This document shows positions 24,915 through 25,623 of a stretch of 54,416 nt of DNA, piece by piece. A program made the position numbers and the translations under genes. Location of the stretch: positions 62,001 to 116,416 of the forward strand of contig CAUYUJ010000243.1 in assembly GCA_963575745.1 (NCBI GenBank), in the 5' to 3' direction. Position 1 is the stretch's first letter, and each line of letters opens with the position of its first letter. The stretch is from Prorocentrum cordatum. Taxonomy: Eukaryota. The notes beneath the pieces are model-generated. The model did not search any database. It saw nothing but the letters and a program-made list of their open reading frames with translations, and was not told the origin of the DNA.

Positions 24915-25623
24915 CTACTTGAACTCCGCCAGCAGCTTCGACGCGTCCCGCTTCAAAGGGCCCCTCGGCGTGGGCCCGATGCGCCTCTCCGCCTTCACCG
25001 TCTCTAGCGTGGCAGTCACAATCTGCATCCAGTGCTGCGTGTCGAAGGCGACGATCAACCTGCCCTTCGGCTTGCTCTCCGTCTTGTTCTTCCACTGCCA
25101 ATGTGGAACCAGCTCCCCCACTAGTACAGCCGACGCCTTGCAGTGGTCCTCTTTGTAGAACTCGTGAGCGGGGGCCATCCACGGCTCTTGCTTCACTCCT
25201 TCTTTGTTGTGTTGCATGGCCGCCCAGTGCGTCGTCGTCGCGAAGATGGTCACGGAGGGAGGGCCCCTGCTCTGGAGGTCGACGGCTTCTCCTTGTTCTG
25301 CCTCGGCCTTGAGCTCCTCGGCCTGGCCGTTGTAGCCCGCCCCGTGCGCTCTCGTTCGTCGCCGCGAATTCTGCGTCAGCGCAGATGTCGCACGCGCAGT
25401 GCACCGTGCTCGGCACCTCTGCCCGCGCGCGGCTGTCCGCGAGCACGAGCCTGCCGAGGATGAGCACCAGCTTGATCAGAGCGTCTTGCCCTCGCGCCGC
25501 CTTCCTCGCCTCCTCCCTGACACCTGCGTCGCCACCGCGGCCCCGTTTGCTCATGGGGCCTGGCAACGGGTCCCTCCGCCGCGCGGGACGCTCCAGCGCC
25601 TCCTCGTCCGCCATCTCCGACAT
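24915..25623 (-). pseudogene. LINE-B 3' ORF (ORF3), ~235 aa, frameshifted
   Basis: MSEMADEEALERP...LIKLVLILGRLVLADSRARAEV...(fs)GAGYNGQAEELKAEAEQGEAVDLQSRG(fs)PSVTIF...GPTPRGPLKRDASKLLAEFK*; homolog at 3150-3860. Confidence 0.7.

Follow-up and report, generated by a model that had tools for sequence, protein, structure and literature searches.

Described systems and the locus under study

The architecture of long interspersed nuclear elements (LINEs) is usually taken to be open reading frame (ORF) ORF1 followed by ORF2, or ORF2 alone. In the L1 type, the ORF1 protein (ORF1p) comprises a coiled coil, an RRM, and a C-terminal domain and serves as the nucleic-acid chaperone of LINE-1. No LINE clade is known to us whose defining feature is an accessory gene conserved after ORF2. 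Here, we analyze a stretch of 54,416 nucleotides from the dinoflagellate Prorocentrum cordatum (contig CAUYUJ010000243.1 of assembly GCA_963575745.1, positions 62,001 to 116,416; hereafter the window), which carries two related LINE insertions: copy 1, a minus-strand element that includes the segment 24915-25623, and copy 2, a diverged relative on the plus strand. Both contain a module behind ORF2 that we call ORF3. We consider it probable that ORF3 is a genuine accessory gene of this LINE family, encoding a product of ~210 to 270 amino acids (aa) at the 3′ end of the element, after an ORF2 of (endonuclease)-reverse transcriptase (RT)-three C2H2-like fingers; this product would be made separately and may have an ORF1-like role on RNA. 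Both insertions in the window are dead. Copy 1 is almost complete in length and has changes of frame; copy 2 is truncated at its 5′ end and carries stops as well as frame changes.

Like ORF1p of the L1 type, the ORF3 product is a small, mostly basic second LINE protein, predicted to combine a disordered N terminus with a long helix and a compact α/β domain. It would be a candidate for the RNP role of ORF1p in this element, where no ORF1 is visible. Unlike ORF1p, which is encoded 5′ of ORF2, it is encoded 3′ of ORF2, and the two share neither a sequence match (0 of 20 ORF3 members against Pfam) nor, in Foldseek and VIA searches, a fold match. Extra ORFs downstream of the polymerase gene are described, in the available portion of PMC5408684, for bdelloid long terminal repeat (LTR) elements and Athena Penelope-like elements, where these ORF3s encode env-like proteins, GDSL esterases, or DEDDy exonucleases. 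The P. cordatum ORF3 resembles them in position, in its modular look, and in a composition unlike that of the polymerase gene. However, the LTR and Penelope-like ORF3s belong to recognizable enzyme or envelope families, whereas the ORF3 described here is an orphan protein in a LINE, and the esterases of non-LTR elements sit upstream of pol in the same portion of that account. Overlapping ORFs in a +1 relation likewise occur in DIRS-1, but this is a tyrosine-recombinase element in which the overlap is between RT/RNase H and the recombinase (PMC5006619, in the portion available). In dinoflagellates, retroposition of DinoSL-tagged transcripts leaves spliced-leader (SL) relics on retrogenes (PMC8045281; PMC6050394, PMC5585692, PMC12014239). 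That host biology is shared, but the descriptions, in the portions available, concern retrogenes and deal with neither the gene order of LINEs nor a 3′ ORF. For dinoflagellate LINEs, the literature searched, which consisted of the available portions of main texts (including PMC11453091, PMC8045281, PMC10666404, PMC5408684, PMC5006619, and PMC3849965), yielded no description of a 3′ ORF.

A protein family behind ORF2

The C-terminal part of ORF3 in copy 1 (24915-25352, minus strand; coding 24918-25352, stop 24915-24917) translates into 145 aa and has 19 relatives at E ≤ 1e-3 among 1.84 billion representative proteins. Their E values range from 1e-56 to 1e-4, with 4 of the 19 at E ≤ 1e-30, and all are 265 aa or shorter; in nine relatives of 204 to 265 aa, the match sits in the C-terminal 130 to 145 residues. 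A profile search added seven members to the family, which is conserved at 25 to 40% identity and whose database members are all stand-alone proteins of at most 269 aa. We then scored 1288 six-frame pieces of the window against an independent profile built from 15 distant members, containing no window sequence or close relative. The C-terminal part of copy 1 was recovered at an E value of 2.6e-33 and its N-terminal part (25353-25623, minus strand) at 9.4e-5 (profile positions 7 to 74). In copy 2, the piece at 3262-3525 was recovered at 5.3e-8; the pieces at 3507-3680 and 3694-3939 scored weakly (E values of 0.13 to 0.15), yet they are colinear with the profile.

Linkage of ORF3 to the end of ORF2

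In copy 1, ORF3 is preceded on the minus strand by an ORF2 in several pieces. The most N-terminal of these, at 28498-29562, is read as an endonuclease-like domain from its motifs. The RT region follows at 26302-28249 in several frames, interrupted by a (GT)89 microsatellite at 27583-27760 and with a YADD motif by reading. For 26661-27374, the 30 best Atlas clusters were all reverse transcriptases (score of 0.91 to 0.92, recognition 2732), 24 of them with PF00078; Pfam hmmscan of the RT region gave no family at E ≤ 10 and a sequence search of the PDB nothing relevant. At 25700-26089, a C-terminal module of three C2H2-like fingers matches zf-C2H2 with an E value of 1.2e-4 (22.8 bits, under the cut-off of 25.2), and the Cys/His spacing can be read three times. 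The ORF2 frame then continues at 25376-25699 across the start of ORF3, and behind the ORF3 stop lies a putative 3′ untranslated region (UTR) with a hexamer-repeat tail (24375-24914 in all), in which no codon-phase signal persists.

The association of fingers and ORF3 recurs in a third element, L001, a 1326-nt contig that was the single locus recovered by one metagenome scan; a scan of a viral collection for loci related to ORF3 returned none. L001 contains the end of an ORF2 with C2H2-like fingers (zf-C2H2 E values of 0.047 and 0.099) followed by an intact ORF3 of 261 aa (ATG at 526 or 544, stop at 1309-1311). Its fingers align to those of copy 1 with a score of 220 (shuffles 32.7 ± 4.9, 0 of 500 reaching it) and to those of copy 2 with scores of 218 and 97 (0 of 500). 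Its ORF3 scores 50 against the N-terminal and 123 against the C-terminal part of copy 1, and 177, 112, and 64 against the pieces of copy 2, values that 0, 0, and 1 of 500 shuffles attained. ORF3 lies 3′ of ORF2 in each of the three elements, at a similar spacing from the fingers, and its ATG stands in the +1 frame, offset by 3n+1 bases from the start of an ORF2 codon. The proposal, made in a preliminary description of this DNA, of a conserved module downstream of the RT ORF and starting inside its end is thus borne out by homology between the two window copies and by linkage to the same ORF2 C-terminal module in L001.

Copy 1 can also be traced as a repeat. In contig-level mapping, 270 contigs of the public run X1, with 80 to 99% likeness, covered all 30 bins of 24600-27250 (those behind the ORF3 stop spanning 24600-24914), and we therefore regard the stretch from RT to 3′ UTR as one dispersed repeat unit; runs X2 and X3 gave 0 and 1 matching contigs. 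Among the 12 of 22 rows listed, three indels inside ORF3 measured 3, 6, and 9 nt, and three in the 3′ UTR measured 1 nt each. Substitutions listed inside ORF3 (nine sites, read by hand) show no third-position excess, a pattern that is uninformative for decayed copies. The (GGATTG)3.3 repeat at 24375-24394 follows copy 1, and no similar repeat was found after copy 2.

Copy 2 retains an ORF2 remnant at 2217-3200 on the plus strand, consisting of the post-RT region (2217-2453 and 2558-2608) and the finger module (2671-3200), and an ORF3 remnant at 3127-3939. The latter is spread over three frames (3127-3525, with three in-frame stops, 3507-3680, and 3694-3939), between which the phase of GC content at third codon positions (GC3) shifts. 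Because the two copies are colinear throughout the part that starts in the post-RT region (26643-26407 against 2217-2453, with a score of 67 and z of 6.2, reached by 0 of 200 shuffles; then 26298-26245 against 2558-2608, then the fingers, then ORF3), copy 2 reads as a 5′-truncated copy of a diverged relative. No RT core lies upstream of 2217, and this one truncated copy begins ~1 kb upstream of ORF3; a module at the 3′ end had been expected to survive 5′ truncation in position, and here it does.

Direct similarity between the two copies is weak. A blastn comparison gave no match at 1e-3, and the sole tblastx match was the finger region (25996-25913 against 2859-2942). In Smith-Waterman comparisons of the ORF3 pieces, the best piece scored 50 against 25.9 ± 4.3, reached by 1 of 1000 shuffles; the other two scored 34 (23 of 1000, marginal) and 29 (161 of 1000, not significant). 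The preliminary description had placed a homolog at 3150-3860 on the basis of shared motifs. Those motifs do occur in both copies, but the region in copy 2 is broken into the three frames given above. It had also staked the pairing on a significant alignment of the two ORFs; while their direct similarity is weak, the independent profile recovers both copies colinearly.

Codon composition and the possibility of host cargo

ORF3 differs from ORF2 in its use of codons. GC3 is 0.82 in the ORF3 of L001, 0.86 and 0.83 in the N- and C-terminal parts of copy 1, and 0.90, 0.85, and 0.70 in the three pieces of copy 2, compared to 0.46 to 0.65 in the fingers and RT of ORF2. In 90-nt windows, codon periodicity begins no more than 60 nt from the ORF3 ATG, tracks the frame changes, and ends at the stop codon. 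Coding genes of P. cordatum have 65.9% GC and its genome 59.7% (PMC10666404, in the portion available).

An alternative hypothesis is that ORF3 represents a host gene family that was picked up once, or repeatedly by adjacent retroposition, and travels as passive 3′ cargo that does nothing for the element. A GC3 of 0.82 to 0.90 and an overall GC close to the mean of host coding genes, which set ORF3 apart from ORF2, would be expected of such a gene. So would the stand-alone nature of all database members, four of which are annotated gene models on scaffolds of 114 to 500 kb, with no fused form found. However, the order of the genes, the +1 overlap with the end of ORF2, and the spacing from the fingers are kept in three elements too diverged for DNA alignment, and passive cargo would not remain open and conserved at 25 to 40% identity over such divergence. 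ORF3 is also internal to the repeat unit, which extends into the 3′ UTR. We regard passive cargo as unlikely, although it is the alternative that survives best.

Reading frames, the overlap, and the possibility of a fusion

ORF3 of copy 1 starts with an ATG at 25623 (minus strand), ~245 to 247 nt ahead of the ORF2-frame stop at 25376-25378, and its stop at 24915-24917 lies 521 nt before the hexamer repeat. The preliminary description had drawn a single ORF of ~235 aa starting inside the last ~250 nt of ORF2. Its ATG, its placement in another frame, and a stop ~520 nt before the tail all stand, but the ORF is a composite of two frames and is not intact. The 709 nt of 24915-25623 are no multiple of 3 and hence do not form a single ORF. 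The frame of the ATG stays open to 24598, and the stop at 24915 belongs to another frame (stop-to-stop ORF 25475..24915), so that the protein is encoded first by 25623-25353 and then, in a second frame, by 25352-24918, with the switch at ~25347-25341. We place a frame change near 25344 because two independent signals coincide there: the profile match crosses frames, and the GC3 phase jumps (+210 to +300 from the ATG). The segment 25341-25347 is read as the lesion of a pseudogene. The ATG at 25623 and the six bases that follow it are retained by four X1 contigs that diverge downstream of 25626 (loose ends).

The overlap of 250 nt with ORF2, also claimed earlier, is mostly a shadow. The ORF2 frame is open across ORF3 because its first codon position falls on the GC-rich third position of ORF3 (GC of 0.83/0.72/0.54 by codon position in 25376-25699), and past the ORF3 ATG this tail is probably non-coding. 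Relative to the ORF3 ATG, the ORF2 stop lies 72 nt downstream in copy 2 and 245 nt downstream in copy 1, and in L001 none occurs to the end of the contig. Since the position of the ORF2 stop is not conserved among the three elements, the true overlap would be short. In L001, an in-frame TGA at 270-272 interrupts the ORF2 frame after finger 1 and before finger 2, and the ORF3 behind that frame is intact.

Two overlapping frames could instead be joined by a programmed +1 (or −2) ribosomal frameshift, which would make ORF3 the C-terminal part of ORF2 in a fusion of the gag-pol type. A +1 relation in three of three elements with overlapping frames, together with an ORF2 frame that lacks a conserved stop, would fit this mechanism, and overlapping +1 ORFs have been proposed to be expressed as fusions in DIRS-1 (PMC5006619, in the portion available). 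Yet a Met stands just before the first conserved motif (1 to 14 residues ahead of PxW) in 9 of the 11 full-length members, codon composition breaks at the ATG, and the intact ORF3 of L001 stands behind an in-frame ORF2 stop. We consider a frameshift fusion improbable.

Intact relatives and predicted structure

The named relatives of ORF3 are P. cordatum entries annotated as "unnamed protein product"; the remaining relatives come from contigs of 1.0 to 2.2 kb, plus one of 10.5 kb. Some intact members (e.g., the annotated P. cordatum proteins of 229 to 249 aa) could be domesticated descendants that serve the cell, with the LINE copies merely their source. Such a history would account for gene models that are intact and diverged while the copy-1-like members in the genome have a decayed appearance; in P0002, for instance, six residues are missing and motif residues are altered. 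Intactness is, however, equally expected of active elements, and we see domestication as quite improbable. That there is no gene at all has next to no probability left: the window, at 52 to 71% GC in 2-kb windows, is rich in long chance ORFs in all frames on both strands, and the ORF as first drawn is not open, but chance would not produce relatives at E values of 1e-56 to 1e-4, recovery by an independent profile at 2.6e-33, a confident fold, and strong codon periodicity.

Five family members (P0003, P0005, P0009, P0025, and P0026) carry the EukProt label of Pyramimonas sp., a green alga, and the three with identity values are 47 to 78% identical to the window copy; a problem of labeling or contamination is possible.

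AlphaFold2 modeling of a 249-aa member gave a mean predicted local distance difference test (pLDDT) of 79.7, with residues 80 to 230 above 90, and a 170-aa core reached 86.1. The model consists of a disordered N terminus, a 38-residue helix (residues 39 to 76), and an α/β domain with conserved RGPPH and GPAPRGPLER motifs, and the isoelectric point (pI) is 8.7 to 9.6 in 10 of 11 full-length members. Comparison of the core in VIA returned the PAN3 C-terminal domain in all six top rows (Z of 5.8 to 6.4, below the noise mark of 8; root mean square deviation of 2.5 to 3.3 Å over 70 to 83 residues), with an identity of 5 to 7%, and Foldseek did not recover it. We treat the likeness to PAN3 as a lead only. 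ORF1p was absent from the Foldseek and VIA rows for two ORF3 models, and a missing match of this kind remains compatible with an RRM and C-terminal domain fold. As modeled, the fold is confident and unmatched in the libraries searched (Pfam, PDB, and viral).

Expression and putative role of ORF3

In working elements, ORF3 would have an ATG of its own in the +1 frame, placed a few dozen bases ahead of the ORF2 end, and would stop ~0.5 kb ahead of the simple-repeat tail. Its protein would be made separately from ORF2, most plausibly from a shorter RNA starting just upstream of the ATG and generated by SL trans-splicing. We favor this route because multi-gene transcripts are resolved in the same way in this host (PMC10666404 and PMC11453091, in the portions available) and because a neighboring LINE carries an SL relic. 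Internal SL trans-splicing is the leading candidate in our judgment, though held tentatively; internal initiation on the full-length RNA, or re-initiation on it, is a less likely route, and expression as a +1 frameshift fusion less likely still.

We speculate that the ORF3 protein acts stoichiometrically on the RNA of the element, packaging or chaperoning it in the vicinity of the 3′ end, the starting point of reverse transcription, and that it would thereby fill the role of the ORF1 proteins of other LINEs. Only three features hint at such a role: the arrangement of the domains, the charge, and the fact that no ORF1 is visible in the 3 kb upstream of copy 1. The preliminary description had noted that no ORF1 can be seen upstream of the endonuclease. 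There is indeed no visible ORF1-like frame in those 3 kb, but where the element begins is not defined in that stretch and the absence of an ORF1 is not established. We also considered whether ORF3 might be the ORF1 of a next copy in a tandem, head-to-tail array; this was rejected, as the UTR and tail follow ORF3, rather than an endonuclease, and the overlap frame is identical in three elements.

Several results weigh against the interpretation of ORF3 as a LINE accessory gene with an ORF1-like role. Its linkage to ORF2 rests on three loci, and RT and ORF3 stand on one molecule in the decayed copy 1 alone. No intact full-length element was present among those examined, copy 2 keeping just the post-RT part of ORF2. 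Fused forms of RT or fingers with ORF3 were absent from the database proteins in searches for longer relatives of the finger module and the ORF3 profile, which is weak evidence. The endonuclease label of 28498-29562 comes from reading only, as Pfam gave 0 families at E ≤ 10 and a PDB sequence search 0 matches. The overall GC of ORF3 (~63 to 70%), unlike that of ORF2, would be compatible with a captured or cellular gene as well. A search of the window for SL sequences found no relic near either ORF3 copy. With regard to function, none of the 20 family members matched a relevant Pfam model at E ≤ 0.1 (including Transposase_22), and searches of PDB sequences and the Atlas gave no match. Structure prediction followed by Foldseek, one of the checks proposed in the preliminary description, gave a confident model with no match at E ≤ 1e-3 in PDB or BFVD, and a VIA-wide search with the full model returned long helices with a best Z of 7.1, again under the noise mark.

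The neighboring LINE bears on the route of expression. A perfect 21-nt dinoflagellate spliced leader (compared to the sequence given in the available portion of PMC8045281) is present at 21534-21554 on the minus strand, at the 5′ edge of an 820-aa frame (19086-21548) of this other element; it occurred in 0 of 100 shuffles, and the window contains no other SL relic. Because of this perfect relic at its 5′ edge, the copy appears to have been reverse-transcribed from a trans-spliced RNA, and judged from its sequence, LINE RNAs of this host are trans-splicing substrates.

Two further frames belong to this other LINE. It ends in a small basic ORF of 147 aa at 14449-14889 (minus strand), ~0.5 kb after its 935-aa ORF2, with a GC3 of 0.77 compared to 0.55 for that ORF2; profile scoring of the window pieces found no homology between this ORF and the ORF3 family, and the pattern of composition thus recurs in a 3′ ORF that is unrelated. 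A 304-aa frame at 20515-21426 (minus strand), 5′ of its endonuclease and with a GC3 of 0.55, contains a Cys-rich, finger-like motif and a coiled-coil-like stretch, and its Pfam matches are weak coiled-coil models alone (best E value of 0.004). In its sequence features, this frame resembles a conventional 5′ ORF1, and both layouts may coexist in the genome.

A broader and decidedly speculative possibility is that this is a lineage without a 5′ ORF1, organized as a two-gene unit whose second gene, with an orphan fold and host-like codons, is released as its own mRNA by internal SL trans-splicing. Truncated, RT-dead copies would then supply the protein in trans. Given the small, GC3-rich 3′ ORF of the neighboring LINE, such an arrangement could even be general for dinoflagellate LINEs.

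Other features of the window

An 18-nt perfect palindrome occurs at 24469-24486 (minus strand) in the 3′ UTR of copy 1, ~90 nt ahead of the tail; chance alone would place ~0.2 palindromes of this kind in the window, and it may mean nothing. Within ORF2 of copy 1, between RT and fingers, a T-rich run at 26096-26137 (minus strand) reads as poly-Phe, and X1 contigs seem to be cut there; at the homologous position L001 begins, and its first six bases are T. An assembly gap of 100 N lies at 32807-32906, 3 kb upstream of copy 1, and long low-complexity tracts flank both copies.

Implications for dinoflagellate LINEs

To place a conserved accessory gene after ORF2, overlapping the ORF2 end and using a codon dialect unlike that of ORF2, would be a distinct LINE solution, set in a lineage with trans-splicing-based expression and with genomes inflated by retroposition. 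It would imply that some of the "unnamed" gene models in dinoflagellate annotations are retroelement genes, and it would add a protein family with a confident yet unmatched predicted fold. ORF3 thereby offers a testable handle on how LINEs in dinoflagellates manage to express more than one protein and on whether their truncated copies remain functional.

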